Shown here: positions 7,864 through 54,800 of the stretch, one piece after another
How the letters are laid out: the number at the start of each line of letters is the position of its first letter
Position numbering within the stretch: the first letter of the stretch is position 1
Source of the DNA: a virus
Reading direction: 5' to 3' (one strand)
IMG/VR virus record: IMGVR_UViG_3300045988_159421
DNA: 64,000 nt
Program-made: the position numbers and the translations under genes
Notes under the pieces: model-generated
Told to the model about the DNA's origin: nothing
Databases searched by the model: none
What the model saw: the letters and a program-made list of their open reading frames with translations, nothing else

Positions 7864-7880
7864 AAGGGGGTTGAAAATAT

Positions 7881-8853: not shown

Positions 8854-8865
8854 ACTATTTCTCCT

Positions 8866-11635: not shown

Positions 11636-11860
11636 TTATGCTAAATATTCATCAACTGTTGCTGGAAAGTCATATCCATATGGTCTTTCTACTATGTTAT
11701 CAAGTATTTCTTGTTCTACATCATCTGCTACAACTCCAAATAAATCTCCATCTTCGTCATAAACTAAATCGTATTCGATTTCTCCTGATACCCAATCATA
11801 CGTTTTTATGTTTTCTTCCATTTCTACTATACTTCCATTCATTTTTTGTACTTTCATCAT
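11636..11860 (-). CDS. Small acidic hypothetical protein
   Basis: 74-aa ORF followed by a hairpin. Confidence 0.45.
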   Translation of the reverse strand: MMKVQKMNGSIVEMEENIKTYDWVSGEIEYDLVYDEDGDLFGVVADDVEQEILDNIVERPYGYDFPATVDEYLA

Positions 11861-12042
11861 TTTCTTAACCCCTTTCGTTTATCTTTATCTTATATTTATA
11901 TAATATATCAAACCCCGTTTATTGTCAACCTTATTTTAAAACTTTTTCAAATTTATTTTTCGACAATAAAAAACAGGCTAGAATTAACTAACCTGTTTTC
12001 GTGAATGGGCGTTTACATCCCTATTTTTTAAATTCATTCATA

Positions 12043-12387
12043 TTACACACCTTCAAAGCTCCAACCATTTTCTCCAACTACCTCTAAAATCTCTTTTAAA
12101 GTATAGTTCTCAAATGGATGTCTATCATAAATCCCATGTGATATATCTTCACTATCAAAAGTGTAATTATATACAGACCAATCATAATCTTTTGCTTCTG
12201 CTTTGCTCATGCAATCTGTATCTTCTATATTTTCAAAACTTATAAAATCCCAGCAACATGGATGTACTAAGTCATGTCTAAATCCTTTCACCTTATTATA
12301 TGTTATATATATTCCACTCTTAAAAAATTTAGATGATTCATACATTTCCATCAAATATTCATCACTTAGAAATTTTAATTTATCCAT
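12043..12387 (-). CDS. Hypothetical protein
   Basis: ORF overlapping the stop of the dCMP deaminase gene. Confidence 0.5.
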
Positions 12388-12841
12388 AGTATCCCCCTTT
12401 TATATCAAAATTAACTAATTCAATTTCTGCTTCTTCTAATATTTCACTTGATAATTCATCAGGATAATCTCCTAAATAAACTATTTTTTCTATTCCTGCA
12501 TTTATACACATCTTTGCACATAATACACAAGGTTTTGTAGTTACATATAACGTAGAATGATTTATATTAACTCCATTGTAAGCTGCTTGAATTATAGCAT
12601 TTTGTTCAGCATGTAAAGCTCTACAAAGTTCATGTCTTTGTCCTGATGGTATTTTTAGTTGTTCTCTTTTGCATCCTATTTCTTCACAATGTTTTAATTT
12701 TTTAGGTGCTCCATTATAACCAGTCGCTAGAATTTGTTTATCTTTTACAATAACTGCTCCTACTTGTCTTCTAATACAAGTTGAACGTTTCTTTACTATT
12801 TCAGCAATTTCCATAAAATACTCATCCCATGTTGGTCTCAT
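12380..12841 (-). CDS. Deoxycytidylate (dCMP) deaminase
   Basis: HAEQNAI and PCVLCAKMC zinc-binding motifs of the CDA/dCMP deaminase fold. Confidence 0.85.
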
Positions 12842-20141: not shown

Positions 20142-21146
20142 TTATTTTTCCTCATAAAAAGTTATATTTTTTAATACTATGTCGAATGTTCCATTTTCGT
20201 TTTTTCTAAAGCTGTATTTCATTGGATCTTCAAAATCTGTTAACTTTCCTTTTATACTAAAACCAGTATCAGTTTTTATATTTCTGTTTTTAAGTTTCTT
20301 TTCAATCCATTTCTTGTCTATTTCAAAGTTTTCAGTTAAACCTCTATCCTCCATATGTTCATTAAAGCTTTCTTGTAATTCTTTATCTTGAATACTATTT
20401 TCAGCAAATTTTTTAACATCTAGAGTTTCTTTTTCTTTTAAAGTATAATTAAGCATACTTCTTATATCTTCGGCCATTTTCAAATCTTCTGATATTGCAT
20501 TTGTTATCCAGTTATCTGCAGTTTTCTTAAATACTTTTGTTTTATATTTATCATCTTCTATCTTTTCAGCATTTAGAAACTCTGTTAAAAATTTAGTTTC
20601 TAGTTGGTCCTTTTCTGCATCTTTGTCTAATAATCTAAAGTGATAATAATCATTCACTCCATTAGGTCCAACTATTACACATTGCTTTTGTCGGCCTGTT
20701 TCAGGTATACCTATCTCATTTGATGCGATTTGTATGTTAAATTTATCTTCTACATATTCTATTGAATGAGTATAAAGTTTTTTATAATCAAGTTTTATAA
20801 TTGCTACATTTTTTTCATCTTTAACACTGTATAAACATATTGCTAAATCACAAGAATCTATTTCATTATTTCGTTGCATTACTTCAAATAAATATGCTGC
20901 TATCTCTTTTGAGTTTTGTAAGAATGTCTTTTCATCGTAAATTATTTGTTCACAGCAATTTTTTACGATATTATCGTTGTAATCTTTGAATTTTGCTTTT
21001 CTTAGATCATCATCTTTTAAAACTCTAGTTATTATCTTTTGGAAAAACTTATCTACTTCTAAACTATTTTTACATTCATAGTCATTTAATATTGGAGCAT
21101 CACTATTTGTATCTAGTACATGTATTATTGATTTATGTATTATCAT
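20142..21146 (-). CDS. Nucleoid-associated protein (NdpA/YejK, 37-kDa family-like; tentative)
   Basis: N-terminal IIHKSIIHVLD pattern and a size of about 335 aa. Confidence 0.4.
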   Translation of the reverse strand: MIIHKSIIHVLDTNSDAPILNDYECKNSLEVDKFFQKIITRVLKDDDLRKAKFKDYNDNIVKNCCEQIIYDEKTFLQNSKEIAAYLFEVMQRNNEIDSCDLAICLYSVKDEKNVAIIKLDYKKLYTHSIEYVEDKFNIQIASNEIGIPETGRQKQCVIVGPNGVNDYYHFRLLDKDAEKDQLETKFLTEFLNAEKIEDDKYKTKVFKKTADNWITNAISEDLKMAEDIRSMLNYTLKEKETLDVKKFAENSIQDKELQESFNEHMEDRGLTENFEIDKKWIEKKLKNRNIKTDTGFSIKGKLTDFEDPMKYSFRKNENGTFDIVLKNITFYEEK

Positions 21147-21616
21147 TTTTCTTCCCCTTTCAATGCATCTTGGCCAAATAAGGCTACTGCCATTTTTTCG
21201 ATTATTTTCTTTTTAATGTAATGTACATTTGCTATTGTACAATCAAACTCCTCGGCAATATCTTTAAGAGTTTTTTCTTCAAAGTAAATATATTTAAATA
21301 TCTTTCTTTGTTTTTCACTCATGCTTTTAAACACTTCTGATATCACCTTTCTGTTTTTTTTATGTTCAAATATATCTCCCTCAACTTTTGCAATTAAATC
21401 ATCTATTCTTATAACTTCATTTTCTATAGGTCTATTAATTGCATGAGTTGGAGAAGATTTAACCATATCATTACAAACTGCCTTTATCGCCCCCCTATCT
21501 CCGTCCTTTATCTTTTTTATATGTTCTTCCTTTTGCTGTATATAGATAGTTATAAATTTCATGTTTTTTAAAATCATTTCTGTTTCTTCCATAACATCTT
21601 TATTCAAACATTCCAC
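21143..21616 (-). CDS. ArpU / sigma-70 region-4-like late transcription regulator
   Basis: C-terminal SEKQRKIFKYIYFEEKTLKDIAEEFDCTIANVHYIKKKIIEKM HTH. Confidence 0.5.
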   Translation of the reverse strand: MECLNKDVMEETEMILKNMKFITIYIQQKEEHIKKIKDGDRGAIKAVCNDMVKSSPTHAINRPIENEVIRIDDLIAKVEGDIFEHKKNRKVISEVFKSMSEKQRKIFKYIYFEEKTLKDIAEEFDCTIANVHYIKKKIIEKMAVALFGQDALKGEEK

Positions 21617-25043: not shown

Positions 25044-26291
25044 TTATATCACACTATCTAACCAATAAATTTTATTATATTTCCAAAGTAATCTACATTT
25101 TCTTACATTTACTTTTTTGCAATGTTTTGTAGGACTTTGAAAATTTAATGCGTTCAAATGTGGATATAATGCTGTAACATATCCTTTATGAGTTTCTCCA
25201 TTTCTGTAAGTATATTCAACCAAATCTCTATGTTTAATTCCTAATACATTATCTGTTTTTGCTTTTGATTTTCTACGCATCGGTTTAATCATCCATTCTT
25301 TTATATTGCAAGTATCTGGAAAACAATTTGTTATACAAATAGCATCGTTTGAATGAGATTTTTCTATATTCCATTCAATTCTTTTATTTGCAGTATCTCC
25401 ACCTGTTGTAAGATGTAATATTCCTAATTGTTTAATATTTTCTCTAAGATAATTTTTACCTTGCATGACATGCATTGCATAATCAAATCTTTTTGGCTTA
25501 CTTTTTATTTTGGTGAAATATCTCTCTTCAAATTCTCGTTCTTTCCCTTCTGTCTTTTGATGACAAGAAGAACAAAGAGTAATGAGATTCCCAATAGTAT
25601 TTGCTCCACCAAATCTCTTTGCTCGAATATGATGAACCTCAAGTACAGTATTTGTTTTTCCACATTCTTGACATTTACAACTATCTCTTAATATTGTCGC
25701 TTTTCTAAGATTTTCATCTAATCTATTATTCTTCTGATATTGCCAATTATAAGGTTTATATCCATCGGTCATTGCTCTTATATCTATTGCTACATCTTCA
25801 AGATAATATTCTTTAATATTTATCCATTTATTTAATTGATATAAAACTCTAAGAATAGAATCTTTCTTTTGTTTAATACTTGGCGCTAATCTATTAGTTT
25901 TTTTTGAAGATGCTCTATTATTGAATCTAGGTTTACGATATCTTTTATGATATCTACGGTATTGTCTATATCCTCTACGAACATCCATTAAGTGTTTTAC
26001 ATCTTGTCTTTGTTCAATAGTTCCTTTAAATACAACTTTATTTTTACTTGGACATTTTTGAACAATTGCTATTCCAACATGAGAACTACCATCGTCAATT
26101 CCACAAACCATATGACTTTCATCTTCGTCATCAGGTTCAACTTCTTTTTCTAACTGAATTACCATAGGATATTTACTTTTTAATTTTGCTCGACCTTTTC
26201 TAATCAAATACCAACCTTTATTTACTTTAGTTGGAGCTAAAGGTCTATTGTTTTTATCTACAACAAAACAATATTCAATTTTATTTTCCAT
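25044..26291 (-). CDS. iscB: IscB-type RNA-guided nuclease (RuvC with HNH insertion)
   Basis: N-terminal NRPLAP (PLMP-like). Ruv[14 protein letters not shown]. Arg-rich bridge [30 protein letters not shown]...HHI...N...LCSSCH. Ruv[13 protein letters not shown]. Confidence 0.75.
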
Positions 26292-32887: not shown

Positions 32888-33177
32888 GTGCTATGCACCT
32901 ACTTTTTATTTTCCTCGTTTTTTTTATTTTTCTTTGTTAAATATTGATAAACTAACCCCAGTGTATCAATATCTTTATTTTGTTTTAACAAAATTATTAT
33001 TTCTTCTTTTAATTTTGTTATATAGTCCATAGCATCTCCCCCAAAACAGCTTAATAATATCGAACTTACGTTCTATGTAGATATATTATAATACTAATTT
33101 TCATAAAATTCTATACCTTATTTATATTATACTTCCATTTATTGCCATTTTGTCTATTTGTCCCATATTGCGGGACA

Positions 33178-33378
33178 CTATTTGTATTCAGAATCAAATA
33201 AGTCAGTTATTCTACAACCTAAAGCTATCGCTATTTTTTCTAGCTTTACTAGATCCAGTACTGTATCGTTATTCTCCAGTCTAAAGAGAGTACTTTTACT
33301 TAGTTTAGTTTTGTATGCTAACTTTCTAAGACTATGATTTTTCTCGTTTCTTACCTTTGAAATATTGTTAATTATCAT
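33178..33378 (-). CDS. XRE-family HTH protein
   Basis: VRNEKNHSLRKLAYKTKLSKSTLFRLENN. Confidence 0.65.
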   Translation of the reverse strand: MIINNISKVRNEKNHSLRKLAYKTKLSKSTLFRLENNDTVLDLVKLEKIAIALGCRITDLFDSEYK

Positions 33379-33456
33379 AAAATTTATTCTAAAATAACTG
33401 CTTTTTCTCGTAAATGTAAAATATTTGGTTAATATTCCACAAAAACACTAGAAAAG

Positions 33457-33535
33457 AAAAAAAATCCACCTTCCGCAAGATGGATTTTCTTCTAAATAAT
33501 CATAGGTCATATATAAGATACAGAAATACTTTTAA
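33457..33535 (-). ncRNA. Candidate small RNA C (about 80 nt)
   Basis: Lies between the TATAAT at 33543-33548 and the terminator ATCCAUCUU-GCGG-AAGGUGGAU plus U8. Confidence 0.4.
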
Positions 33536-33542
33536 CAATTTA

Positions 33543-33588
33543 ATTATAACATTCCAATACTTATTTGAAAATCGGAACATATTCCTAA
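33543..33588 (-). promoter_or_regulatory. Conserved motif copy 2 plus TATAAT
   Basis: Motif at 33570-33588 and a -10 box at 33543-33548 (minus strand). Confidence 0.5.
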
Positions 33589-33595
33589 CTTTTAC

Positions 33596-33714
33596 AAAAA
33601 AACAACCGCTCTTGATGAGGGTTAAGAGCGGTTAGGGAGTATTGTTTCATACCATAAATTCTAATGATAAACAATATACTAGAAATATTTTAGGAATAAA
33701 AAAATATAATCTTA
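33596..33714 (-). ncRNA. Candidate small RNA B (about 120 nt)
   Basis: Ends in a perfect 10-bp terminator, AACCGCUCUU/AAGAGCGGUU plus U7. Has an internal long hairpin AGUAUAUUGUUU/GAAACAAUACU. Confidence 0.4.
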
Positions 33715-33718
33715 GATA

Positions 33719-33776
33719 ACTATATTATTAATGATACTACTGTTTTTTCAAAACTTCAATCGGAACATATTCCTAA
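33719..33776 (-). promoter_or_regulatory. Conserved motif copy 3 plus a weaker -10 (TAATAT/TATAGT)
   Basis: Motif at 33757-33776. Confidence 0.4.
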
Positions 33777-33784
33777 TTAACAAT

Positions 33785-33870
33785 AAAAAATAACTACCTC
33801 ACAGATGGAAAGGTAGTTATTCTTTAAGAAAGGAGTACTTATATTAGTAATATAGCTAAAACTTTAAGTC
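33785..33870 (-). ncRNA. Candidate small RNA A (about 85 nt)
   Basis: Ends in the terminator UAACUACCU/AGGUAGUUA plus U6. Contains ACUCCUUUCUU (anti-Shine-Dalgarno-like) just 5' of the terminator. Confidence 0.4.
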
Positions 33871-33876
33871 TTATAC

Positions 33877-33927
33877 AATATAAGATTAACACCTTTCATT
33901 TCCAATTACAATCGGAACATATTCCTA
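33877..33927 (-). promoter_or_regulatory. Conserved motif copy 4 plus TATATT
   Basis: Motif at 33909-33927 and a -10 box at 33877-33882. Confidence 0.45.
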
Positions 33928-34086
33928 TATATTTTTAGGGTATGAAACTATAACTGTAGATTAATAAGAAAACGTACTTTGACAAGTGAATATAAAATTT
34001 ATTACTTAAAATAACTTTAACTGTGGAAATTATAACTTTAATTGTGGTATAATAAGGTATATTTATTAAAGGAGGAAGATTCTTTT

Positions 34087-34641
34087 ATGGATAAAAAAAG
34101 TATAGAATTTTTAAAAGAATTACAAAGTGAAATGCTAACACAAAATGAAATACTAACACAAGGTACTAGTAATCTTAGATTTTGGGTGGTAACAGACGAA
34201 AGAAAAATATATAGTGAAGATGATTATGACGGTCAAGAAATAATATTTGAGGGGGACGTAATAGGAGAAAACCTAAAAGATTTATGTGATTTTTTAGTTG
34301 ATTATGATGATAAAATTAGAATATCATACAATAAAGAAAATGACTATGTAGAATTTTTAGACAAAGATGGGCATAAAACTACATTATTTGAAGTAGAAGG
34401 ACTTGTAGATTATTTAAATAATGAATTAGATTATGATATACATTTAAATAATTATAAAATAGAAGAAATTATAGTACCAAATACAATGTTTTTAACTTTG
34501 AGAGAATGCAGAGAACATATTAAATCAAACGAACATCATTATAACAAACCATCTGCTTATGGGATGTCAGCAGAGAAAAGCTCTCAAGCAAAACAATTAT
34601 ATAATATACTATTAAAAACTAATTGGGATGAAGTAAAATAA
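34087..34641 (+). CDS. Hypothetical protein translationally coupled to the ISL3-like gene
   Basis: ATG at 34087 behind an AAAGGAGG RBS. Its stop is 1 nt before the next ATG. Confidence 0.5.
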   Translation: MDKKSIEFLKELQSEMLTQNEILTQGTSNLRFWVVTDERKIYSEDDYDGQEIIFEGDVIGENLKDLCDFLVDYDDKIRISYNKENDYVEFLDKDGHKTTLFEVEGLVDYLNNELDYDIHLNNYKIEEIIVPNTMFLTLRECREHIKSNEHHYNKPSAYGMSAEKSSQAKQLYNILLKTNWDEVK

Positions 34642-34642
34642 T

Positions 34643-35956
34643 ATGAATATACTAAATTTACCAGAATTTGAAGTTTTAGACACAATACAAGATGACCATG
34701 ATATGACGGTAATAGTAAGACCAGTTAAAGCGCCTGTGGCTTGCCCAGAGTGTGGTGGAGTTGAATATTATAAGCATGGTAAATCCAAACGATTTGTAAG
34801 GGATTTAAATAGCTTTGGCAAACGAGTAGGGATTGAAATACATACACACAGATATAAATGCAGATACTGCGGTACTACATTTAGTCAACATTACAAAAGT
34901 ATTGACGATAGAGATAAAATCACTATTCGTTTAAGAGAGCAAATAGAAAAAGAATCCCTTAAAAAGCCATTCGCCAATATAGCAGAAGAATATAGTGTTT
35001 CTCCTACTACAGTAAAGAGAATATTTAATGCTTACATAGAAAGGTTAGAAAAGGATATGACATTCCTCACTCCAGTTATATTAGGTATAGACGAAGCACA
35101 TCTAAATAAAAGCATGAGAGCCGTTTATACCGATATAATTGGACGTAAGGTATTGGATATCCAGCCAAGCCGTAAGAAGTCCGATGTAAAGGCTTTTCTG
35201 AGTAAATTGCCTAACAAGGAGAATATAGAAGTAGTAACCATAGACATGTGGAGATATTACAAAGAGGCAGTATATGAGGAGTTGCCAAAAGCTCAGGTAA
35301 TAGTTGATAGATTCCATGTAATACAATTAGTTAACAATGCTTTAGAAGGTGAGAGAAAGTCATTTAAAGGCTCTTTAGACAGAAAGCAAAGGTCTAAGTT
35401 GTTAAAAGATAGATTCTTGCTACTGAGGAATAAAGAGGATTTAAATGCTAGACAGATTTGGGATATGCAACTAATGTTTTTAGACTTTCCACAGTTAAAG
35501 TTAGCCTATGAGTTAAAGGAACAATTTAGGGATATCTATAAACACGATAACCGAGAAGATGCTCTAAGGGCTTATGAGGACTGGAAGAAGGCAGTACCAA
35601 AGGATATGAAATACTATCAAGATGTTATTAAAACAGTTGATAACTGGCAGTATGAGATATTTAACTACTTTACTTGTAGAATCACAAATGCTTATACAGA
35701 GAGTTTAAACAACTTGATTAAGAACATCGAGAAAGCTGGTAGAGGTTACTCTTTTGAGGTACTTAGAGCAAAGGTGCTATTTGGTACAAGTGCTACTAGA
35801 AAACCTAAATACACAAGAGCAAATACAAGTAACAAAACATATACATTTACTACGGCATTTAGTTGGAATGATTTCGTAGGAAGTACAAAATTAACAGAAG
35901 GATTTGGAGTAGATATTCCACAACTACTAGAGGTATTAGAGAGTGATAAGTTTTAA
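34643..35956 (+). CDS. ISL3-family transposase homologue, second diverged copy
   Basis: CPECGG...CRYCG zinc finger, GIDEAH, VTIDMW, VDRFHV and NAYTESLNNLIK blocks. Collinear with 15496-16803 but clearly diverged from it. Confidence 0.75.
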   Translation: MNILNLPEFEVLDTIQDDHDMTVIVRPVKAPVACPECGGVEYYKHGKSKRFVRDLNSFGKRVGIEIHTHRYKCRYCGTTFSQHYKSIDDRDKITIRLREQIEKESLKKPFANIAEEYSVSPTTVKRIFNAYIERLEKDMTFLTPVILGIDEAHLNKSMRAVYTDIIGRKVLDIQPSRKKSDVKAFLSKLPNKENIEVVTIDMWRYYKEAVYEELPKAQVIVDRFHVIQLVNNALEGERKSFKGSLDRKQRSKLLKDRFLLLRNKEDLNARQIWDMQLMFLDFPQLKLAYELKEQFRDIYKHDNREDALRAYEDWKKAVPKDMKYYQDVIKTVDNWQYEIFNYFTCRITNAYTESLNNLIKNIEKAGRGYSFEVLRAKVLFGTSATRKPKYTRANTSNKTYTFTTAFSWNDFVGSTKLTEGFGVDIPQLLEVLESDKF

Positions 35957-35967
35957 TTCACTCTCTT

Positions 35968-36324
35968 TTATTTTCCACACTTAAAGTTGTATACCCTATT
36001 TTTATAAGTAAATTTTACAAAAGTTCCGTTTTCAGTTTTAGCCTTAACTCTGGCAACTTCTGTTGTTTCATCTATTTCTAAACTTTTAATCGCTTGAATA
36101 ACCATATTTGTTTTACAGTTTTTAGTTTTAAATTCAATAATATCATCTGTATATTTTACAGTTGCATTTGACATGCTAAAATCCACTCCAGAAATAGTTA
36201 ATACATATACACTAACTTTTTCTCCTTCAAATGGCTCTAGAAATTTTTTAATTTCCCATTGTTCAACTAATTTTTTAATGTTATTATTTTTCATTTTTCT
36301 TACCCCTTCTCTAATTAATATCAT
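35968..36324 (-). CDS. Hypothetical protein
   Basis: 118-aa ORF. Confidence 0.45.
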   Translation of the reverse strand: MILIREGVRKMKNNNIKKLVEQWEIKKFLEPFEGEKVSVYVLTISGVDFSMSNATVKYTDDIIEFKTKNCKTNMVIQAIKSLEIDETTEVARVKAKTENGTFVKFTYKNRVYNFKCGK

Positions 36325-36465: not shown

Positions 36466-36924
36466 TTACCCTAGTAATTCATATAATCGTTGTTGTCTTT
36501 CATACTCTTTTAAAGCCTTTTGAGATTTATTTCTAAACTCTAATCTTAGATTCGATCTTCTACAATTTTCAGGATTATTATCTTTGAATACTATTTTAAA
36601 AAATCTTGTATTATATGCTCCAAAGAATCCTTCGTAAACTAATTTATGAACTGGAATATTTTTTCTTTTACCATTTTGGACCAATGTTACAGTTTTATAT
36701 CTATGAGTATAAAAAACTTTCAGCTCTTTCCAAACAACACTTCCATAATCAATTTTATCTAGTGTTTGATGCTCAAATCTTTTCTTGCTGCTAAATACTC
36801 TTCCAAAACTTGTTATGTAATAATCATCAAAGTTTGTAACTGGAACAGCATCTTCACCTATAAATAAATAATCTTTAATTGTATCTTTCATCAAGTTCTT
36901 CCAGTTGCTCTCTGTTATACTCAC
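36466..36924 (-). CDS. NUMOD4/HNH_3-type homing endonuclease-like protein
   Basis: YYITSFGRVFS (NUMOD4-like) and VHKLVYEGFFG. Start uncertain because it overlaps the upstream ORF. Confidence 0.5.
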   Translation of the reverse strand: MSITESNWKNLMKDTIKDYLFIGEDAVPVTNFDDYYITSFGRVFSSKKRFEHQTLDKIDYGSVVWKELKVFYTHRYKTVTLVQNGKRKNIPVHKLVYEGFFGAYNTRFFKIVFKDNNPENCRRSNLRLEFRNKSQKALKEYERQQRLYELLG

Positions 36925-38004: not shown

Positions 38005-39174
38005 TTATTTTGGAATATCTAAATTATTATTTAAAGCATAATTTATTACCCTTTCTTGAGAAAATTCACTTAAAGAATTTAAACCATTTTCAATTGCTGT
38101 TAAATATAATTTTCTTTCTATGTTACTACTGTTATTATTGTAATTATTAGATTTAGATTCTATATGTTCATTTTTAACTCTTCTAAGTTTGTTTTCTAAT
38201 TCTTCTGGACTATAATTTTTATAATGTTCATTAAATGTATCATGATACTTTGTTAAAGGTTTTTTATTTTCTTTTCCAGTATCTTTTGTAACAGTTTTTC
38301 CTTTGTCTTTTTTATTTTGTTTTTTATTTTTAAATTCTGCTTGATCCTTTTGATAATCATCTAAAGTTACTATATTTTTTTTATCTAGATTTTCAAAAAC
38401 TTGTTTCATATAAGCATATTTTTTATTAACACTTTCTTCACTTGCTGCTATAAAAACTTGTTCAAATACATCTAAATCAAATTTATTTGCATATTCTAAA
38501 AGTAGTTTTTTAGTATGTGGCATAAATCTTTTTTCAATTTTAAAAGACTTATATAATTCTATAAGTTTTGTTTCTTTTTCAACACCAACAACAACTTCAT
38601 TTTCTTTATTAATATAGTTGTTATTATTATTTTCTTTATTAGCGTATCGAAAATCGGTATCGCAGAAATTGGTATCCCTATTTTCGGTATCCCAGTTTTT
38701 AGGATTACGGTGAGATGTAGTGTTTTCAACGCTTTCATCGTTATTAGTTTTTTCGCTTACGTTCATATTTACGTTATCGTTTACGTTCGTAATATCTACG
38801 TTTTGTTTTTCGCTAAAAACTTCGTATAAATAACCATTTGTAAGGTTACCGTTTTTTAGAGGTGTTCTTTTTATATAACCAACCTCTATAAGCTTATTTA
38901 AGCCATTAGATACTCTAGTTTTACTTACTCCTAATTGAGTAGCTAAGCCTTGTATACTTATTACGTGATTTGGATTAGATATATATTGTAAAATCTTTGC
39001 AAATACAAAAAATGCATTTGGGCCTAATAAATTCATATCGTTCATAATTTCATTTGGAATAACTGTAAAACCTTTGGCTAGTTCTGCGCTTGCTATAAAT
39101 TTGGATTCATTGCTACTTTCGAACTTAGACATATCTATTTCCCTCCTATGTTGAATTTTATCGATTTGTAGCAA
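38005..39174 (-). CDS. rep: Plasmid-type replication initiator (wHTH N-terminus, DnaD-like centre)
   Basis: wHTH FTVIPNEIMNDMNLLGPNAFFVFAKIL...GVSKTRVSNGLNKLIEVGYIKR. Internal GATACC and TTACGTT iterated motifs. Sits next to the par locus. Confidence 0.55.
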   Translation of the reverse strand: MLQIDKIQHRREIDMSKFESSNESKFIASAELAKGFTVIPNEIMNDMNLLGPNAFFVFAKILQYISNPNHVISIQGLATQLGVSKTRVSNGLNKLIEVGYIKRTPLKNGNLTNGYLYEVFSEKQNVDITNVNDNVNMNVSEKTNNDESVENTTSHRNPKNWDTENRDTNFCDTDFRYANKENNNNNYINKENEVVVGVEKETKLIELYKSFKIEKRFMPHTKKLLLEYANKFDLDVFEQVFIAASEESVNKKYAYMKQVFENLDKKNIVTLDDYQKDQAEFKNKKQNKKDKGKTVTKDTGKENKKPLTKYHDTFNEHYKNYSPEELENKLRRVKNEHIESKSNNYNNNSSNIERKLYLTAIENGLNSLSEFSQERVINYALNNNLDIPK

Positions 39175-39481: not shown

Positions 39482-39579
39482 ATAAAAAACCTCCTATCTG
39501 TAAAGTGTGTCACTTCTCTTTTTAAAAAGTGTATCACTTTAAAAAACAAAAATCAATATATAATTCTAAAATAATAATA

Positions 39580-39770
39580 TTGGTTAAGATATTAACATTA
39601 TTTTAACTATAAACAACATTTTAATAAAATATTAACTAAAATATATATTAATATATTAACAAAATTTAAACAATAATTAAGATGTTATTAATATTTAAAC
39701 TATTTTATTGACTTTTGTATTTTTTTATCATATACTTTAATTAAGATATTATTAAAATATCAACTAACAT
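39580..39770. repeat. AT-rich repeat field upstream of parM (candidate parC centromere and divergent promoters)
   Basis: Repeated (A)ATATTAAC / AAGATATTA units at about 39586, 39627, 39651, 39677 and 39742. Confidence 0.4.
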
Positions 39771-39786: not shown

Positions 39787-40710
39787 ATGGCTAAAAAAGA
39801 TGTTCAATTTATAGGCTTTGATGGTGGTAGAGGTTACATTAAGGCTTATACAGAAGTAGATGGAGAGGCAAAACAAACAATATTTAAGTCAGTATATGGT
39901 GATGGACGTTCAGGTAAAGTTGACTTTGAAAATTACGAAAAACCTAAATACTTAAATATAGAAGGTGAAGACTATTTCGTTGGTTTATTAGCAGAAAGAG
40001 AATCTTATTCTTCTATAAGAAATTCACAAGATTCAAAAACAAGTGATACTATGAAGATATTATTTGCATCAGCATTAAACGATATAGCAGTAAAAGATAC
40101 TGTAAAAGTGGTATTTGGAGTTCCATATAAAAACTATAAGAAATCAGTATTAGCTGACATAGTAAATACATATAAAGGCGAAACAATCACTATAAAAGAC
40201 AATATAACAAATGCAACTAAGAAAATATTTATAGAAGATGTAACAATCGCTAGAGAGGGCGATGCGGCTTTATACTATGCTATTAATGGAAAGGTAAATA
40301 AAGATAAGCCAGTAGGACTTGTTAACGTTGGTTTCAGAACTATGGAACTATCATATTTTGATAAAGGTTTCCAATTTAATGACAGATTATCTAATACTGT
40401 TGAATACGGAAATAGTACAATGCTAAAAATAATACAAGATAATTTAATGGCAAGTGGAATTGCAAAAAGTGTAAACGAAATAGATAGTTCTGATGATTAT
40501 GATCTACTTAAAAAGAAAGCATATAAATTAGGTTCTGAAAAAGTAAATCAAATAGTAGAAGAAAATTGGATAAACAAAGATGAAATGAAGTTATATTTAG
40601 CAGGTGGAACTTCTTTAAATCTTGAACCTTCTGATGACTTTGATAGAGTTGATAATTCTCAAATGGCTACTGCAATTGGATTATTTAAGTTTGCAAAATT
40701 AAAATTTTAA
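39787..40710 (+). CDS. parM: ParM/Alp-family actin-like segregation ATPase
   Basis: N-terminal phosphate-1-like IGFDGGRGYIKAY, VNVGFRTMEL, and C-terminal YLAGGTS. Confidence 0.65.
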   Translation: MAKKDVQFIGFDGGRGYIKAYTEVDGEAKQTIFKSVYGDGRSGKVDFENYEKPKYLNIEGEDYFVGLLAERESYSSIRNSQDSKTSDTMKILFASALNDIAVKDTVKVVFGVPYKNYKKSVLADIVNTYKGETITIKDNITNATKKIFIEDVTIAREGDAALYYAINGKVNKDKPVGLVNVGFRTMELSYFDKGFQFNDRLSNTVEYGNSTMLKIIQDNLMASGIAKSVNEIDSSDDYDLLKKKAYKLGSEKVNQIVEENWINKDEMKLYLAGGTSLNLEPSDDFDRVDNSQMATAIGLFKFAKLKF

Positions 40711-41053: not shown

Positions 41054-41160
41054 TGTTTATTCTCAACCGAATCAAGTAGCCTACTAATAGGTCATATGAG
41101 TGGTTTTTTCTTGTCTAAAATAAAAAAGCTAGAGGAGAGTATCCCCTAGCTTTTAATATT

Positions 41161-41204
41161 ATCGGTCGCTTATCGGTCGCTTATCGGTCGCTTATCGGTC
41201 GCGT
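41161..41204. repeat. Four tandem 11-bp repeats, ATCGGTCGCTT
   Basis: Perfect units at 41161, 41172 and 41183, plus a variant at 41194. G+C-rich island between the amidase stop and its terminator. Confidence 0.85.
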
Positions 41205-41213: not shown

Positions 41214-42092
41214 TTATTTTTCAAATACTTCTACATATTTTGGGCTGGCAGTGATATATACTCCTGATTTTAATTTATACATATCTGTTCCAGTTCTTTT
41301 AATTTTTTCTGTAATTGTATAAACTCCACCAGCAGTAACTTTACCAATAGTATTTTCTTCTGTAAAGTCAGCTTTGCTATGTATATTTACATCCTTTAGT
41401 ATTTTAACGTACTCAACTTTAGTAGCTTCTTCTTGCTTTTCTGCTATATAAGTTACTCCGAAGTATTCGCATACCGCCTTACAAACGGCCTCAGCACATT
41501 TTTCTTGATGTTTTTTATCAAGCATAAGTTTTGCTTCATTCCAATAATCCATAAAACCATACTCGATTAATATTGCTGGCATTGTTGTTTGTCTAAGTAT
41601 AGCTAATGTAAATCCACTCATATCTACATCTTTCATAAGTCCGTAGCTATATTCATAATCTATGTCCTTTTCAAGATGCTTAACTGCTAAATTACCTAAT
41701 TTAATAGAGTTAGAAGAAGAATTTTTAGTATGCATAACTAATAACCCTTTAACTCGAGTTTGCCATTTAGCACAGCTTCCTATTGCATTATAGTGATTTG
41801 AAATTAATATATCTGCTTTAGCTTTATTAGCTTTACTTGCTCTAGTAGACAAGGCAATATCTGTTTTACCTGTCATATCTGCAGTAAACATTGTATCTAT
41901 ACCACATCTCTTTAGCGCAGCAGCTAGATATTCACTTACACCTCTGTTCCATTCATTTTCTTTTATGATCTTTCCTTTTGCTCTTACTAATTCATTATCT
42001 ATATACAAATTTTTTGACATTGGTACTGATTGTTTACCTTCTGTATGCATACCATGTCCTGCATCTATAGCTACTAAATATTTTTTACTCAT
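41214..42092 (-). CDS. Endolysin: N-acetylmuramoyl-L-alanine amidase (Amidase_3) with a C-terminal SH3-like binding domain
   Basis: VAIDAGHG...E...NHYNA pattern. The C-terminal 70 aa are SH3b-like. Confidence 0.8.
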   Translation of the reverse strand: MSKKYLVAIDAGHGMHTEGKQSVPMSKNLYIDNELVRAKGKIIKENEWNRGVSEYLAAALKRCGIDTMFTADMTGKTDIALSTRASKANKAKADILISNHYNAIGSCAKWQTRVKGLLVMHTKNSSSNSIKLGNLAVKHLEKDIDYEYSYGLMKDVDMSGFTLAILRQTTMPAILIEYGFMDYWNEAKLMLDKKHQEKCAEAVCKAVCEYFGVTYIAEKQEEATKVEYVKILKDVNIHSKADFTEENTIGKVTAGGVYTITEKIKRTGTDMYKLKSGVYITASPKYVEVFEK

Positions 42093-42187
42093 AATAACAC
42101 TTCCTTTTCTAAAAATAAAAGATGCTTAAAAAAATCTACATTTATATCGAATTTCTAAGCACCTTACAGTTTATAAAATATTTATAT

Positions 42188-42445
42188 CTATTGTTCTATT
42201 AAATTCTTAAATGCCTGATGTAATCCCGTAGATGCTAGTCCACTTAAAAGCCCTCCTAAGAAAATATTCATATCAAATGATTTAGATATTGATATGTTTA
42301 ATACAACACCTAATACAGCCATTATGAAAGGAATATACTTATTAGGAATAAAATCAAAGCTAGTTTTTATAACATATCCTATTCCACAACAACCTAATAC
42401 AACTCCAATGACTAAATAACTATTAATAACATTTAAATCTATCAT
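42188..42445 (-). CDS. Putative holin
   Basis: 85 aa with 2-3 hydrophobic helices, directly upstream of the endolysin. Confidence 0.55.
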   Translation of the reverse strand: MIDLNVINSYLVIGVVLGCCGIGYVIKTSFDFIPNKYIPFIMAVLGVVLNISISKSFDMNIFLGGLLSGLASTGLHQAFKNLIEQ

Positions 42446-42979: not shown

Positions 42980-43255
42980 CTTTTCAAACTCCTTTTTACA
43001 AAATAAAAAGGATTACAAATTAGTAACCCCCTTAGAAAAAATGGTAAGTGCCTCTAAATACTATATACACATATAACTTTTAAAATTAAAATTCGATTAA
43101 AATATAAATGTTTTTTTATTAAGTCCACATTGGAATCACCCTCTTTCATAGCCAATAAGCAAAAGAAGGACCCACTCTAAAAGTAAGTCCTTTCCGGAAA
43201 AGGTTATTAAACCGATTCCTTTGCTCGTTGGGGTTTCAAATGAGAAATTATTTTA
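42980..43255 (-). promoter_or_regulatory. Long structured 5' leader of the lysis operon
   Basis: About 275 nt between the -10 box and the ATG. The core can fold with a 10-bp closing helix, AGCAAAGGAA/UUCUUUUGCU, enclosing several hairpins. Confidence 0.3.
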
Positions 43256-43261
43256 TCTACA

Positions 43262-43312
43262 ATTATAGTGTAAATTCCCAATAACAAATTTGCAATCGGA
43301 ACATATTCCTAA
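43262..43312 (-). promoter_or_regulatory. Conserved motif copy 5 plus TATAAT, 25 nt downstream
   Basis: Motif at 43293-43312 and a -10 box at 43262-43267. Spacing is identical to copy 1. Confidence 0.55.
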
Positions 43313-43534
43313 TAATTATAATTTAAGTGTTAAAACTTTGTTAATTAGTAATATTTATATATATATTTTGCATATGCTATGATATGCGAAGCGTTTATGA
43401 AGTAGCGACAGCGACCGTAATAAATGCAAAGCGGTTATATCAAGGTTATAGCAATTTGGATAGACTATATTCATTTTTATCTAGTATATAAAATTATATA
43501 AATTTATATAAAAATAAGGAGGAATAACCTCCTT

Positions 43535-51863: not shown

Positions 51864-54800
51864 CTATGATTTTTTAGGTCTAGCTACAAATAAAACTTTA
51901 TCTGGAGTATTCTTTGTTAGAGCTATTATTCTTACCCCATTATCACATTTTGTACTTTCAATACAACTCATTACTCCGTTTACTTCTCCTACACATATAG
52001 CTACGTGTGAAATTTGCATATATCTTGTAGTTGTAAGTTTATCTCTATCGTAGAATATCAAATCTCCTTCTTTTAAATTTAAGAAGTTTGTTGTGTCTGC
52101 ATCATGTAAAACCCATCCATGTTCAACACAATATCTTGCTTGATCTGCAGATAGTCTCGGTAAAGTTATCGCCCAACTATATGCAGTATTTCTTTTTACT
52201 TTTGTCATTTTATTATTTTTGTAAGGAGTTTTATCGTATTTCAATCCCATAAATGTATACATTGATAAAGTACTACAGTCTATTTGATATTTTTTTCTTT
52301 CTGAATCATACCATCTGCTTAAATTTGCAGATGGATTTTTAAATGATGCAGGAGTGGATGTAGCTGTTGTTGATTTCCAACCAGAATATTCTAGTTCTGA
52401 ATGATTTAAAAATGTTTTTGCTATTTCAACTACTTTTTTGCCTCCAATGAAATCTTTTTCCTTTGTCGTTGTTGTTCCTGCTACTTCTTTATAAGCTGAA
52501 GCATAATATTTATAATCAATGTCACTGTTTACATTTTTCATTATTATTAATTTATAAGTAGTATTTGATTTGGGTAATAATTGTCCAGATTTGCAATCAT
52601 CACCTTCGATATAACAAATTTTACTTTGTGAATATTTAAAATCATCTGTTGTTGTAAATTTTATTCTTGCATAAAAATTTTCTGCAACTTTAGAAGGCAA
52701 TTTAAATGTAAGTCCATTTATAAGTTCGTAATCAGTCATTTGTGTAGCTTTTAACACTACATTTATTGTTTTACCTTCGTTTCCTGAAGGCTTATCATCA
52801 TCGTCACCACCACTAGTATCTCCCTCACTACTATCATCTTTCTTTTTATATCCGATAGGAGTAGCCAGTAATTTTTCTTTTATTGCATTATAAAAAACAC
52901 CAATACTGGAATCATCTTTAAATGTATAACCATCATTAGTGTAATTAGGATTTAATAAATTCGTATAAGTTTCTAATTTGCTAGATATATCTAATAAAAA
53001 TACATCGTCTTCATTTTCACAGAATGATTGTAGTTCCGTATTAAATGAATCGATATCGCTATTTACATTTTCATAATCTGTATAGACAGTTCCAACATGT
53101 AATTCTTTTAAAATAAAGATTGGTGTATTTCTATATTTCATTTTTAATATATTTGCAAGAGTTTTAATGCCAGATATACCTTTTTCTGTTAAGTTGTTTA
53201 TCCCAAAGTGTATTAATACATAAGGAGTTGAACTGGGATAAACTTTTTCATCATTTTCATAAAAACCTTCTACTGTAGTTACTAAATTATTATTATCGTC
53301 ATAAAAATCATATGCATTTGCCTTTCTAACCGCTTTTATGTACACTTCATTCATATCTGTCTTGTCGATCACAGGAGTGTCCTCTACATTATTGTTATCG
53401 GCTTCAACTAAATCGTAAGGTCTTAAACAAAATCCGTATTTATAGATATCATTGTATACTGGCATATACCTTATAGCCTTTGGCCAATAATCCCACTTTC
53501 TAGCATGAGCTACCATATGTGTTCCGTTTTCTTTACCGCAGTAAATTAACGTATGATGAGTAAAGTTCTTTGCTATTGCCTTAGCTCTGGTTAATGTAGT
53601 GGGACATTCTTTGTTGCACATCATTATAATATCCCCTGGTAACATATCCTCTATCGTAGTTTTTGTAATTTTAAACATTTTGTAACCACTTTTTCTAGTA
53701 GCATAGTCAACAAGTGAGCCATAAGCACAATATGAATCATCATGAAATATACTTTTTAATCCAGCTTCACCATAGCAAGAAGTGACAAGACTAGAACAGT
53801 CATAGCATATTGGATTTTGTAATCCATAAAACTTACCAGGATGTTTTCGAGGCTTTTTAAAATTCCATGTTCTATATTGTTGGTCATAAGTAGCTAATTT
53901 ATCTGTATGTTGTTGTACTATAGCTTTTGCAGTATCAACTATAATTTGTCTTATATCAGATGCACTTGCTTGGCCTTTTGCTTTTGGAGTAGATGTGCCA
54001 ACTCCATAGCCTAGCTTGTTTCCTTGAGCATCTAAATAGTAAGGTAATTGGCCATTTACAACTTTATACCAGCATAAATACAACTCTACATTATTTGGTG
54101 TTCCTAATCCCTTTTGGTCTTTTAATTTTTGTCTATAAGCTGCAAAGTCAAATTTTAAGCTATCTAATTCCTCGTAAACTTTTAATTTTGTCTGATTGGA
54201 TTGAGAACTCAAATAATAAGAATCAACAAATGTATATCCGTATTTATCGCACACATACTTACTCACTATCCAGTTTAATGAACCTTGTCCCATATTGTTA
54301 GCTACTAATCCACCAAATATATTTCCGTGCGCATAATCAATAGATTGACGTAGTTCCCAGCACCCAAATCTTATTTGATTTAAGATGTTTTTGTCGACTG
54401 TTATTCCATTAACTGTAGTAGTTCCACCTACCCCTGGTTTCATAGTATTATAAGAAGGTAGAAATTTATAAGTACTACCATCAAGATATTTTATATTTTG
54501 TGTTTTGTTCCCCCACTCTTTGAAGTATGTACTTCTTTCACATTGCATTAGTCCGTAACCGCCATTACTACCTGTAGTACTATAAGGGTCACCTCTAGAT
54601 TCTCCCATTATGACTGCATACACTAGGTTTGGATCTAATCCAAATTTTCTAGCATAATGTTCAACTATAAGATATAGTTTATATTTATTTCCTGTAGATG
54701 ATAGCTCATTGAGATTCGCTTTATTTTGATATTTACCTATGTCATATTTCTCATATAATGCTAATGCTTCTGCATATATATCATTAGTTTTATCAGTAGT

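Follow-up and report, generated by a model that had tools for sequence, protein, structure and literature searches.

Three tandem small RNA genes behind one operator-like promoter motif in a putative gut phage

In Listeria monocytogenes, LhrC1-4 are small RNA genes arranged head to tail; every copy has a separate terminator and a separate promoter, the promoters being co-regulated, and their CU-rich (UCCC) stretches bind ribosome-binding sites; the LhrC copies are homologous duplicates under the LisRK two-component system. Small immunity RNAs, namely P1 c4 RNA, P4 CI RNA and N15 CA RNA, are encoded beside the lysis-lysogeny genes of extrachromosomal prophages or satellites, are processed from longer transcripts and have their complementary sites in the same operon. 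The c4 RNA of P1 masks a ribosome-binding site, and P1 has one repressor operator at many dispersed promoters. The csRNAs of streptococci are CiaR-dependent small RNAs in whose promoters the direct repeat TTTAAG-N5-TTTAAG replaces the -35 element (PMC3091779). Expression of GOLLD RNA goes up during phage lysis; the RNA reportedly assembles into a cage, and pull-downs reportedly show it bound to ribosomes (PMC12286853).

The locus described here lies in a stretch of 64 kb of viral DNA, which we call the window. The element looks like a siphovirus of ~65-75 kb carrying plasmid-maintenance genes, and its host is probably Intestinibacter (Peptostreptococcaceae), a gut bacterium. An earlier note on this DNA had described three head-to-tail promoter-small RNA-terminator units behind one motif; these units are present on the minus strand (33927-33457) and are conserved in the phage family. 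Their parts are as follows.

33910-33927, minus strand: motif copy A, exact match to TAGGAATATGTTCCGATT.
33758-33775, minus strand: motif copy B, exact match to TAGGAATATGTTCCGATT.
33570-33587, minus strand: motif copy C, exact match to TAGGAATATGTTCCGATT.
33877-33911, minus strand: predicted promoter A region, spanning both of its readings.
33906-33911 and 33883-33888, minus strand: main reading of promoter A (predicted), -35 TTGTAA, 17-nt spacer, -10 TAATCT.
33900-33905 and 33877-33882, minus strand: overlapping alternative for promoter A (predicted), TTGGAA, 17 nt, TATATT.
33731-33759, minus strand: predicted promoter B, TTGAAG (33754-33759), 17-nt spacer, TATCAT (33731-33736).
33543-33571, minus strand: predicted promoter C, TTTTCA (33566-33571), 17-nt spacer, TG-extended TATAAT (TGtTATAAT, 33543-33551).
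33784-33875, minus strand: sRNA A, ~92 nt, predicted 5' end ~7 nt past the -10 box.
33596-33723, minus strand: sRNA B, ~128 nt, predicted.
33452-33535, minus strand: sRNA C, ~84 nt, predicted, without an anti-Shine-Dalgarno stretch.
33811-33820 and 33790-33799, minus strand: 10-bp stem of terminator A (ATAACTACCT/AGGTAGTTAT), with T6 at 33784-33789.
33624-33633 and 33596-33613, minus strand: terminator B, 10-bp stem AACCGCTCTT/AAGAGCGGTT, formed by AACCGCUCUU (33624-33633) and AAGAGCGGUU, then G and U7 (33596-33613).
33457-33492, minus strand: terminator C, 9-bp core stem, then T8.

Strong intrinsic terminators with 9-10-bp stems and U6-U8 had been proposed for each unit, and predicted terminators of this kind are present in A, B and C. 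Folding supports the terminator hairpins of A and B (z-scores of -3.8 and -3.9), and terminator stem A has two compensatory pairs among A alleles. A simple terminator scan with a loop limit of 8 nt flagged C alone, as A and B have loops of 10-11 nt. The bodies are mutually unrelated in sequence, as had been claimed, and contain neither internal repeats nor an ORF with a Shine-Dalgarno sequence. Relatives carry 8-nt and 10-nt deletions within the B body, which excludes coding in B, and many indels lie between A and its sister allele A2. The comparison with Rfam that the earlier note had suggested was run with release 15 at gathering and permissive thresholds, and A, B and C matched no family (best scores of 17-22 bits with E-values >1, against gathering scores of 48-55). 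The generic features of a bacterial trans-acting small RNA gene, that is a promoter, a short body free of ORFs and an intrinsic terminator, are thus all found in silico. Type I toxin-antitoxin modules were considered and rejected, as the plus-strand ORFs of 20-51 aa have no Shine-Dalgarno sequence and do not resemble hydrophobic toxins. Our verdict is that A, B and C are predicted new small non-coding RNA genes of a familiar sort.

The exact 18-mer TAGGAATATGTTCCGATT precedes each unit, with start-to-start distances of 152 nt (A-B) and 188 nt (B-C), while base 19 varies, being A ahead of cassette A and T ahead of B and C. A count tolerating up to 3 mismatches gave five occurrences of the motif across the window, each an exact copy on the minus strand, against 0.12 expected; five copies were reached in 0 of the 100 shuffles used as control, and no degenerate copy (≤3 mismatches) was found in the 64 kb. 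The full-form site, AATCGGAAyATrTTCCGATT, is a near-palindrome of 18-20 bp with the core GGAA-N4-TTCC, covers roughly -52 to -34, and has a perfectly palindromic variant at L043:1516 and also in L224. We compared 11 promoter classes; the window and sister phages supplied some of them, and the others came from a divergent phage type (L043/L224/L185) and from the chromosome of I. bartlettii N19. Throughout these classes the final TT of the motif opens a -35-like hexamer (TT plus 4 nt), and a TAnnnT hexamer follows exactly 21 nt past the motif (nt 22-27), against a background of 3-7% per position. Mean identity between classes in the intervening 21 nt is only 44%. Instead of the variable 20-29 nt between motif and -10 box given in the earlier note, the geometry is therefore constant, with the -35 element starting in the TT of the motif and a 17-nt spacer. 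The -35-like hexamers of the three cassettes (TTGTAA, TTGAAG and TTTTCA) all have this spacer, and their promoters, which look suited to the sigma A of the host, match the sigma-70-type consensus at 9-10 of 12 positions in silico. We interpret the motif as a promoter-fused operator for a dimeric regulator. The LexA/Cheo box, cre, Spo0A and NrdR boxes presumably misfit it in spacing or sequence, a comparison that we take as a lead only.

This arrangement resembles that of the csRNAs (PMC3091779) in several respects: both are sets of small RNA genes of 50-200 nt with intrinsic terminators, in which the spacing between a single regulator site and the -10 box is constant, and in both the sequence types vary between genomes. 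The csRNAs have an unpaired region complementary to the Shine-Dalgarno sequence (and AUG) between two stem-loops; A and B may have a counterpart in an unpaired stretch ahead of the terminator, with weak 5' hairpins, and C has none. The site itself differs, as it is a GGAA-N4-TTCC palindrome fused to the -35 element and not the CiaR direct repeat. Membership of the CiaR regulon was rejected, since (N)TTAAG-N5-TTTAAG is absent 10 nt before the -10 box and TAGGAATATGTTCCGATT stands 21 nt from it instead (PMC3091779). Whereas the csRNAs are chromosomal paralogues, the present genes are phage-borne with unrelated bodies, and their promoter also drives a tRNA and GOLLD. The likeness to LhrC1-4 lies in the tandem layout, the individual promoters and terminators and the CU-rich stretches; here, however, the bodies are not homologous duplicates but unrelated sequences, and control seems to rest with an element specific to the phage. 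Like the P1, P4 and N15 RNAs, the present ones are small phage RNAs beside lysis-lysogeny control genes, but each has its own predicted promoter and terminator, and no genomic complement longer than 13 nt was found.

The three cassettes described in the earlier note are real, but the set was incomplete, as two further motif-promoters lie in the window, with motif copies at 205-222 and 43294-43311.

173-222, minus strand: fourth motif copy (205-222) and promoter, TTGAAA (201-206), 17-nt spacer, TAGAAT (178-183).
85-158, minus strand: tRNA-Gln(UUG), behind the fourth motif-promoter.
272-853: serine recombinase gene, adjoining the fourth motif copy.
43157-43311, minus strand: unit E, motif (43294-43311), TTGCAA (43290-43295), 17-nt spacer, TACACT (43267-43272).
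43157-43192, minus strand: end of the unit E RNA, a structured RNA of ~100 nt; terminator-like hairpin with CUUUUGCUU tail.

Unit E sits upstream of the lysis cassette, and its RNA gave no match in Rfam 15. In relatives the tRNA-Gln unit runs on into GOLLD RNA and further tRNAs, at a position that in the window would lie beyond base 1. GOLLD (RF02032) was found downstream of the motif and tRNA-Gln in 10 of the 11 relatives scanned, scoring 176-190 bits where 150 is the gathering score; these above-threshold matches belong to the relatives, the GOLLD site falling outside the window itself. L015, the sole relative so scanned, has no terminator or other strong promoter between the motif-promoter and GOLLD. 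A unit of tRNA-Gln, GOLLD and tRNAs matches the known association of GOLLD-tRNA islands (RF02032; PMC12286853), and in that study an operator-promoter common to GOLLD and small RNA genes is not mentioned. A, B and C, in contrast, are not GOLLD. Because one promoter module heads all five units, they look like one co-regulated, RNA-only set, and since GOLLD is reported to rise during lysis, this set is probably expressed in lytic growth.

Directly downstream of the cassettes lies a gene for a small DNA-binding protein, which we call cro66.

33178-33378, minus strand: cro66, a 66-aa Cro/C1-type helix-turn-helix (HTH) protein.
33409-33414 and 33386-33391, minus strand: predicted cro66 promoter, TTTACG, 17-nt spacer, TAGAAT.

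The cro66 mRNA is probably leaderless, because there is no Shine-Dalgarno sequence and the ATG lies 7 nt past the -10 box. The gene adjoins the cassettes in all relatives (86-100% identity), and its product is the only DNA-binding protein common to the window and the divergent motif-bearing phage type. Motif-bearing phages retain its helix-3, SKST(L/I)(F/Y)RLENN, while distant homologues have a helix-3 of the (G/S)K(S/T)TLNNIEN type and lack the motif; at ~20 distinct loci of such homologues (43-56% identity) neither the motif nor any repeated upstream element was found. The absence of the motif from distant homologues suggests that the system is confined to the present phage group. No cro66 was found within 8 kb of the chromosomal motif copy of I. 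bartlettii N19, which stands ahead of a Ser/Thr-kinase gene. Three other HTH proteins were rejected as binders: HTH171 is swapped between sister phages (identity falls from 100% to 32%) with no change in the motif, HTH114 lies within an accessory block missing from L015, and the window encodes no homologue of HTH125, a protein of the L043-type phages. We therefore regard cro66 as the strongest candidate for a motif-binding protein, on the basis of a correlation that phylogeny confounds.

Searches located the motif in 76 stretches of IMG/VR as well as in additional metagenome contigs, with the same unit set in each genome, and the whole system is present on ~40 metagenomic contigs. It should be noted that the matches were gathered by exact-match searches, so that the apparent invariance of the motif across genomes is partly built in. 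Chance matches are also to be expected: 102 of the 136 instances in a 16-mer metagenome scan were attributed to chance, came from GC-rich environmental contigs and were removed by context, and 7 of 9 genome matches of the 18-mer were judged to be chance, with ~17 expected by our own estimate from the collection size. A full-text literature search for the motif string returned nothing relevant. When positions 33100-34100 were compared by blastn with phage and plasmid records, only the end of an ISL3-type element matched, an end common to phiCD211-like C. difficile phage-plasmids, and distant blastn found no cassettes in sequenced isolates of annotated phage and plasmid collections.

Sister phages have alleles A2/B2 in place of A/B/C, with the terminator retained through compensatory changes; the allelic variation available for this comparison is thin, amounting to 3 different sequences of A type and 3-4 of B2 type. 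The 8-10-nt deletion in B of relatives takes out a predicted hairpin arm, a 47-aa ORF on the opposite strand stands in place of the B body in L004/L013, and L043 has a hybrid unit in which the C promoter is joined to a D/E-type 5' end. Mobile elements land repeatedly in the cassette island; in relatives without the IS, the upstream gene p118 takes its stop codon, TAG, from the first three bases of motif A.

Anti-Shine-Dalgarno-like stretches, which the earlier note had taken as a possible sign of translational repression in trans, lie directly 5' of the terminator in A (UACUCCUUUCUU, 33826-33837) and B (UACUCCCUAA, 33632-33641), and both are predicted to be unpaired. In each case an unpaired UACUCC(U/C) precedes the terminator and is accompanied by weak 5' hairpins. 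The A stretch has 9 nt (CUCCUUUCU) in common with what we take to be the 3' tail of Firmicute 16S rRNA. The bodies of A2 and B2 have diverged, yet an unpaired pyrimidine stretch, UACUCCU or UAUCCCU, is kept just 5' of the terminator. TACTCC is rare, with only 16 minus-strand occurrences in the window, 2 of them within the ~300 nt of cassette transcripts. The idea of repression gains support for A and B from the unpaired stretches kept in A2/B2; C has no such stretch, and no target is singled out. Target prediction, also suggested at the outset, was run on the phage start regions and no mRNA stands out: duplex energies against 124 such regions gave generic matches to strong ribosome-binding sites only, the best partners of A being a 41-aa ORF at 11436 and the HNH gene at 36924. 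No complementarity longer than 13 nt was found between A-C and the phage sequence. GGAGUA serves as Shine-Dalgarno sequence of only three small ORFs, which are not distinctive.

29194, minus strand: ORF with GGAGUA, 30-aa peptide.
28973, minus strand: ORF with GGAGUA, 51-aa HTH protein.
23065, minus strand: ORF with GGAGUA, 55-aa AbrB-like protein.

The best reading of A and B remains translational repression through anti-Shine-Dalgarno pairing, a role predicted from their sequence. Taken together, we give about an even chance to an explanation in which A, B and C are three independent small RNA genes, switched together by a dimeric HTH regulator, with A and B blocking translation initiation. 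A dimeric phage HTH regulator, for which cro66 is the best candidate, would bind the site and switch all five promoters together. Repression would fit the good -35 and -10 elements; class II activation would fit as well, given a site centre near -43 and the chromosomal copy ahead of a kinase gene. The UACUCCU of A and B would most likely pair with Shine-Dalgarno regions of host or phage mRNAs and block initiation, while C and E, which lack a CU-rich stretch, would probably act through other pairing or through protein binding.

There is a small chance that the DNA, and not the RNA, is the functional part, as an array of regulator-binding sites and a triple transcriptional insulator that stops read-through from the p216-HNH-p118 operon into the early cro66/replication operon, the short transcripts being by-products. 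Where relatives lack the IS, p118 leads directly into motif A and no terminator intervenes, which leaves terminator A to end the p118 operon as well; A-runs flank terminators A and C, which look bidirectional, and the bodies are poorly constrained, as the 8-10-nt deletion in B and the replaced B body of L004/L013 indicate. However, a single terminator would suffice for insulation, A2 and B2 hold the unpaired CU-rich stretch and its position despite divergence elsewhere, and an identical promoter serves tRNA-Gln and GOLLD, RNAs whose functionality is not in doubt. We consider it improbable that the units encode anti-defence decoys, whether RNA anti-CRISPRs (repeat mimics) or antitoxin or guide RNA mimics directed against host immunity. 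The island opens the early region and its alleles differ among sister phages, as is often seen in counter-defence loci, and the sister phages carry CRISPR arrays with a 37-nt repeat (GTTTTAATCCTTGTTTAACTGGAATATATTCTGTTAC), which makes CRISPR conflict part of the biology of the family. The local alignment of this repeat to the cassette region or to the window was nevertheless matched or exceeded by 77 and 35 of 300 shuffles, no site in the window lies within 9 mismatches of the 37-mer, and the bodies lack internal repeats. Still further from what we would expect, the 18-mer could be a recombination or partition site, used by the serine recombinase or as a dispersed centromere of the ParM-like system, at which cassettes are shuffled; its copies are identical, dispersed and palindromic, one stands right after the resolvase gene, hybrid units such as that of L043 exist, and mobile elements have landed in the island repeatedly. 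Against this very improbable reading, the motif keeps a strict register with the -35 and -10 elements in 11 of 11 classes, including the chromosomal copy, and all copies are in direct orientation, so that essential genes would be lost if they recombined. A separate iteron array belongs to the par operon, and homologous recombination between near-identical promoters explains the hybrids equally well.

39576-39767: iteron array of the par operon (ParM-like).

We attach almost no weight to the proposal that the units encode very small peptides, a 20-aa MTYDYLEENPSCGRWIFFLF in C or the product of a 29-aa TTG-initiated ORF in B: short minus-strand ORFs are present, but none has a Shine-Dalgarno sequence, they pass through the terminator hairpins, the B deletions of relatives lose the start region and shift the frame, and several indels separate A from A2. 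The suggestion that A-C are RNA cargo or guides of an array-less type IV-B Csf complex, raised as speculation in the earlier note, is extremely unlikely to be correct. The type IV-B operon itself is genuine according to PADLOC, and the window contains no CRISPR array.

5128-8582: type IV-B operon encoding Csf1, Cas11, Csf2, a CysH-like protein and Csf3.

PADLOC E-values are 3e-29 for Csf1, 3e-20 for Cas11, 1e-61 for Csf2 and 2e-43 for Csf3, and the cysH-like gene (7075-7863) has a PAPS_reduct domain; the set of csf1, cas11, csf2 (cas7), csf3 (cas5) and a cysH-like gene, without cas6, DinG or an array, is that of type IV-B. Heterogeneous RNA of non-CRISPR origin is the reported scaffold of one IV-B complex (PMC7937560). 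The IV-B set of the window has neither array nor Cas6, nor was a solitary site resembling the sister-phage repeat found in the window as a source of crRNA. Genetic linkage between IV-B and the small RNA island is nonetheless absent across the family. The operon belongs to a 7.3-kb accessory block (~5042-12397), and the closest relative, L015, lacks this block but retains A, B and C; among the 16 contigs that carry cassettes and reach 60 kb or more, only 3 contain csf2; IV-B co-occurs with either allele set, A/B/C or A2/B2; the motif is absent at nine loci of other phages with 59-67% identical Csf2; and A-C have no common repeat-like handle. The tempting link between an array-less type IV-B system and nearby small RNAs is thereby removed as unsupported.

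Phage-encoded regulatory RNAs have been little studied in gut Firmicutes, and the putative regulon of three independent small RNA genes and their co-switched partners is unusual in being RNA-only. It forms a compact and tractable set, with one 18-bp element, five promoters, nothing but RNA products (one tRNA, GOLLD and four small RNAs) and natural allele swaps in sister phages. Our analysis provides a predicted regulator-operator pair, cro66 and AATCGGAAyATrTTCCGATT, as well as a defined promoter and operator for GOLLD, whose co-regulated partners point towards translation. We speculate, as a long shot, that the five operator-promoters amount to an 'RNA-only translation take-over', in which cro66 would fire tRNA-Gln, GOLLD and the four small RNAs in lytic growth and so re-program initiation by host ribosomes, two of the small RNAs (A and B) mimicking the anti-Shine-Dalgarno tail of 16S rRNA. 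As a corollary, the Ser/Thr-kinase gene of I. bartlettii N19 could be a host defence gene that senses the phage regulator. If true, this would tie the function of GOLLD to translation control, and the regulon would offer a genetic handle on GOLLD.

Re-reading the sequence bore out the three head-to-tail units described in the earlier note (cassettes A, B and C): between 33927 and 33457 on the minus strand, each opens with the exact 18-mer TAGGAATATGTTCCGATT, an operator-like site hereafter called the motif. A search allowing up to three mismatches found five copies in the 64-kb window, all exact and all on the minus strand (0.12 expected), and none of 100 shuffles attained five copies. The copies are located as follows:

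33910-33927, minus strand, exact motif heading cassette A
33758-33775, minus strand, exact motif heading cassette B
33570-33587, minus strand, exact motif heading cassette C
205-222, minus strand, fourth copy, 47 nt upstream of the tRNA-Gln gene (85-158)
43294-43311, minus strand, fifth copy, heading a further unit, E

We then aligned, anchored on the motif, the five units of the window, the alleles of sister phages, two units of divergent phages and one of a bacterial chromosome, which fell into 11 classes. In every class, the terminal TT of the motif and the four bases that follow form a -35-like hexamer (TTGAAA, TTGCAA, TTGTAA, TTGAAG, TTGTCA, TTTTCA, TTTATA or TTTAAA), and TAnnnT (TATAAT, TAGAAT, TATCAT, TAATCT, TACACT or TAAAAT) lies 17 bases past it. 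The background frequency of TAnnnT in this DNA is 3-7% of positions, and the 21 nt between motif and TAnnnT have a mean identity between classes of only 44%. The motif belongs to the promoter and keeps a fixed register with it. The variable spacing of 20-29 nt to the -10 box proposed earlier had arisen because the best-looking -10 box had been picked; the register does not vary. The motif core GGAATATGTTCC is palindromic at 10 of 12 positions, and the full palindrome AATCGGAATATGTTCCGATT exists as one natural motif copy. Such a near-palindromic 20-bp site, at about -52 to -34, would fit binding by a dimeric helix-turn-helix regulator.

The terminators of the three RNAs had been correctly described, with a 10-bp stem and T6 in A, a 10-bp stem followed by G and T7 in B, and a 9-bp core stem and T8 in C. 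A simple terminator scan with a loop limit of 8 flags C only, since A and B have loops of 10-11 nt. Folding z-scores for transcripts A, B and C are -3.8, -3.9 and -2.7, and no ORF of at least 20 aa with a ribosome-binding site was found in the cassette region, in agreement with the earlier statement that the bodies lack a plausible RBS-led ORF. The Rfam check proposed for A, B and C matched no family. Exact copies of the motif turned up in 76 stretches, drawn from about 40 IMG/VR contigs, as well as in more metagenome contigs. Large contigs carry either A, B and C or a two-unit island of the alleles A2 and B2, always with the same Cro-like gene directly downstream. A and A2 are homologous yet diverged, with several indels; their UACUCCU is invariant and unpaired, and two positions of the A-type terminator stem change compensatorily (UA/UG/CG and AU/GU/GC). 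In B2 variants the terminator and a 5' hairpin are retained, as is a CU-rich stretch, which reads ACUCCU or AUCCCU. B itself has deletions of 8 and 10 nt in relatives, with which one arm of a predicted hairpin and any reading frame are lost. In two relatives, L004 (3075-3540) and L013, the B body is swapped for a segment with a 47-aa ORF (MYDIEKDNQLVELSEFARSAKEIDALKGF...) on the opposite strand, and the B promoter would there yield an antisense RNA of ~400 nt ending at the original B terminator.

Folding leaves UACUCCUUUCUU (33826-33837, in A) and UACUCCCUAA (33632-33641, in B) unpaired, immediately 5' of the terminators. The stretch CUCCUUUCU of A is identical to nine bases of the Firmicute 16S rRNA 3' tail. 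The minus strand of the 64-kb window has 16 instances of TACTCC, yet two of them fall within some 300 nt of these transcripts, and the alleles contain it too. Such features are those of sRNAs that cover Shine-Dalgarno sequences by base pairing. The streptococcal csRNAs are one example, likewise defined by a terminator and a single regulator site that keeps a set distance from the -10 box (PMC3091779). No complementarity longer than 13 nt to the RNAs was found anywhere in the phage, and scans of start regions, the phage part of the proposed target prediction, gave generic strong-RBS matches only, with no target singled out. Translational repression in trans, as suggested earlier, is the best-supported reading for A and B as putative repressors, with the CU-rich stretch unpaired and kept in alleles; C, which is nearly invariant among relatives, lacks the stretch, and no phage target emerged.

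The other motif copies extend this set. In 10 of the 11 relatives' loci scanned, GOLLD RNA (RF02032, 176-190 bits; gathering score 150) lies downstream of the motif-promoter and tRNA-Gln, with a tRNA nested inside it and more tRNAs after it (for example L015:3961-5061, and nine other loci), while in L018 a tRNA array stands in its place. L015, the closest relative, was the one genome scanned for intervening signals, and it has neither a terminator nor a further strong promoter between the tRNA-Gln motif-promoter and GOLLD. The first 84 bases of the window are identical to the start of the relatives' tRNA-Gln-to-GOLLD stretch, which places GOLLD just beyond base 1 of the window. The 43294 copy is followed by a structured RNA of ~100 nt (E), without an Rfam match, that ends in a terminator-like hairpin (43157-43192). 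A second such hairpin (43006-43033) lies between unit E and a lysis cassette comprising an NrdD-C-terminus-like 89-aa gene, an 82-aa gene, holin and amidase; the two hairpins flank a mini-ORF of three codons that has a strong SD (GAGGGTGATTCCAATGTGGACTTAA). All five predicted motif-promoters of the window genome would therefore have RNA products: A, B, C, E and tRNA-Gln, the last joined by GOLLD in relatives. A rise of GOLLD in phage-induced lysis has been reported (PMC12286853), and we infer from this association that the whole five-unit set is probably expressed in the lytic phase.

Elsewhere the motif-promoter is not limited to RNA genes. A palindromic copy precedes an XRE-family gene in the L043/L224 phage type, and in the chromosome of Intestinibacter bartlettii N19 an exact motif in the same register (TGtTAGAAT at 22-27) heads a 509-aa gene with a Ser/Thr protein-kinase domain (L086:5669-7281), which could be a defence gene wired to a phage regulator. 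Its neighbours include a HicB-like gene (identified by eye) and a gene with a GGACT-family (gamma-glutamyl cyclotransferase-like) domain, and an odd G/T-rich stretch (5120-5400) lies just upstream of the kinase unit.

On correlative sequence evidence, the best candidate for the motif binder is cro66, a 66-aa Cro/C1-type protein (33178-33378, minus strand), because it always adjoins the cassettes, is the only DNA-binding protein common to the window and the divergent motif-bearing phages (58-64% identity), keeps its helix 3 (SKST-L/I-F/Y-RLENN) in those phages, and has homologues at 43-56% identity that carry another helix 3 and lack the motif. No cro66 homologue lies within 8 kb of the N19 motif copy. 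Three other helix-turn-helix proteins fit less well: sister phages have swapped HTH171 (identity as low as 32%) with the motif unchanged, HTH114 sits in an accessory block that L015 lacks, and HTH125, of L043-type phages, has no homologue in the window. The good -35/-10 elements suggest repression; a site centre near -43 and the chromosomal kinase copy make class II activation equally compatible. A separate predicted promoter serves cro66 (33386-33431), with the -10 box TAGAAT, 7 nt and then ATG, an arrangement conserved in A2/B2-type phages; the lack of an SD and the short distance to the ATG suggest a leaderless mRNA. A half-site-like GGAATAT (GTGGAATATTAACCAAAT) upstream of the cro66 -35 element could provide weak autoregulation.

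It had also been speculated that the small RNAs are cargo of the type IV-B complex. Positions 5128-8582 do encode a bona fide IV-B set (Csf1, Cas11, Csf2, a CysH-like protein and Csf3), and a published IV-B complex bore non-CRISPR RNA (PMC7937560). Linkage fails within the family: L015 is collinear with the window save for the precise absence of a 7.3-kb accessory block that includes IV-B (5042-12397, also holding an XRE gene at 9466-9810 and a 483-aa gene), and it retains A, B and C; of the 16 cassette-bearing contigs that reach 60 kb or more, just 3 have csf2; IV-B is found alongside either allele set; and other IV-B phages lack the motif. A link between IV-B and the small RNAs is not supported. 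As stated earlier, the window has no CRISPR array, unlike several sister phages, whose arrays hold 3-8 copies of a 37-nt repeat, GTTTTAATCCTTGTTTAACTGGAATATATTCTGTTAC (L066:6926-7520; L032:1444-1708; L055:1850-2113; also L011, L017, L044 and L237); one contig with an array also has IV-B. In L066 and L032 about 2.2 kb separate the E unit from the array downstream of it, which would put the array between the lysis genes and the par operon. A-C do not mimic this repeat. Its core GGAATATATTC is similar to that of the motif, GGAATATGTTC, but shuffles align no worse.

The window appears to be most of a siphovirus genome, with the following features:

51864-61272, tape measure, Dit and Tal
41214-42445, holin and amidase
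23-32 kb, replication and recombination genes
39787-40710, ParM-like actin, plasmid-type maintenance, preceded by an iteron array (39576-39767)
38005-39174, second initiator-like protein, plasmid-type maintenance
272-853, small serine recombinase, plasmid-type maintenance
33938-35996, ISL3-family element (2,059 bp) carrying a 199-aa passenger ORF and a 437-aa transposase, with imperfect terminal inverted repeats
954-2219 (GIY-YIG), 25044-26291 and 36466-36924 (HNH), further homing endonucleases

No integrase was found among the annotated window ORFs, and a plasmid-prophage lifestyle is likely. The iterons, variants of AAGATATTAAC, precede the ParM-like gene and probably form the partition site. 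At 41159-41202, after the par operon and before the endolysin gene, TTATCGGTCGC is repeated perfectly in tandem four times, and the related TTACGGTCGCTGTCGC occurs at about 43400-43420. The tape-measure gene is split in two (62844-63599 and 58198-61272) by a group I intron (62679-62950, 105 bits) that comes with an HNH homing-endonuclease ORF (61467-62420). A 157-aa protein (21143-21616) matching transcription-regulator/sigma-factor PHROGs (phrog_36, phrog_1740 and phrog_351) is probably a late-gene activator.

The ISL3 element, flanked by the 8-bp duplication TAAAAATA, sits just 2 nt upstream of motif A, where it has taken the place of the C-terminal residues of the upstream gene p118 (35968-36324), whose stop codon, TAG, is the first three motif bases in relatives without the element; two relatives have an IS at that spot. 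In L096 and L275 the C promoter is broken within its -10 box by another mobile insertion, which begins GTCAATAACCCCTCCTAAATCACC.... With both insertions, the sRNA island is an insertion hot spot. The host is probably a member of the Peptostreptococcaceae, since the exact motif-promoter was found in one cultured genome, I. bartlettii N19, and a gut MAG, and the sole similarity to sequenced phages is the ISL3-type element, whose end is shared with an element in the C. difficile phage phiCD211.

Overall, the initial observation of three cassettes is confirmed and extended. In silico, A-C are phage-borne, regulon-defined sRNA genes of a known kind, while the RNA families are new, as is the operator; what is unusual is a promoter common to sRNAs, a tRNA and GOLLD.
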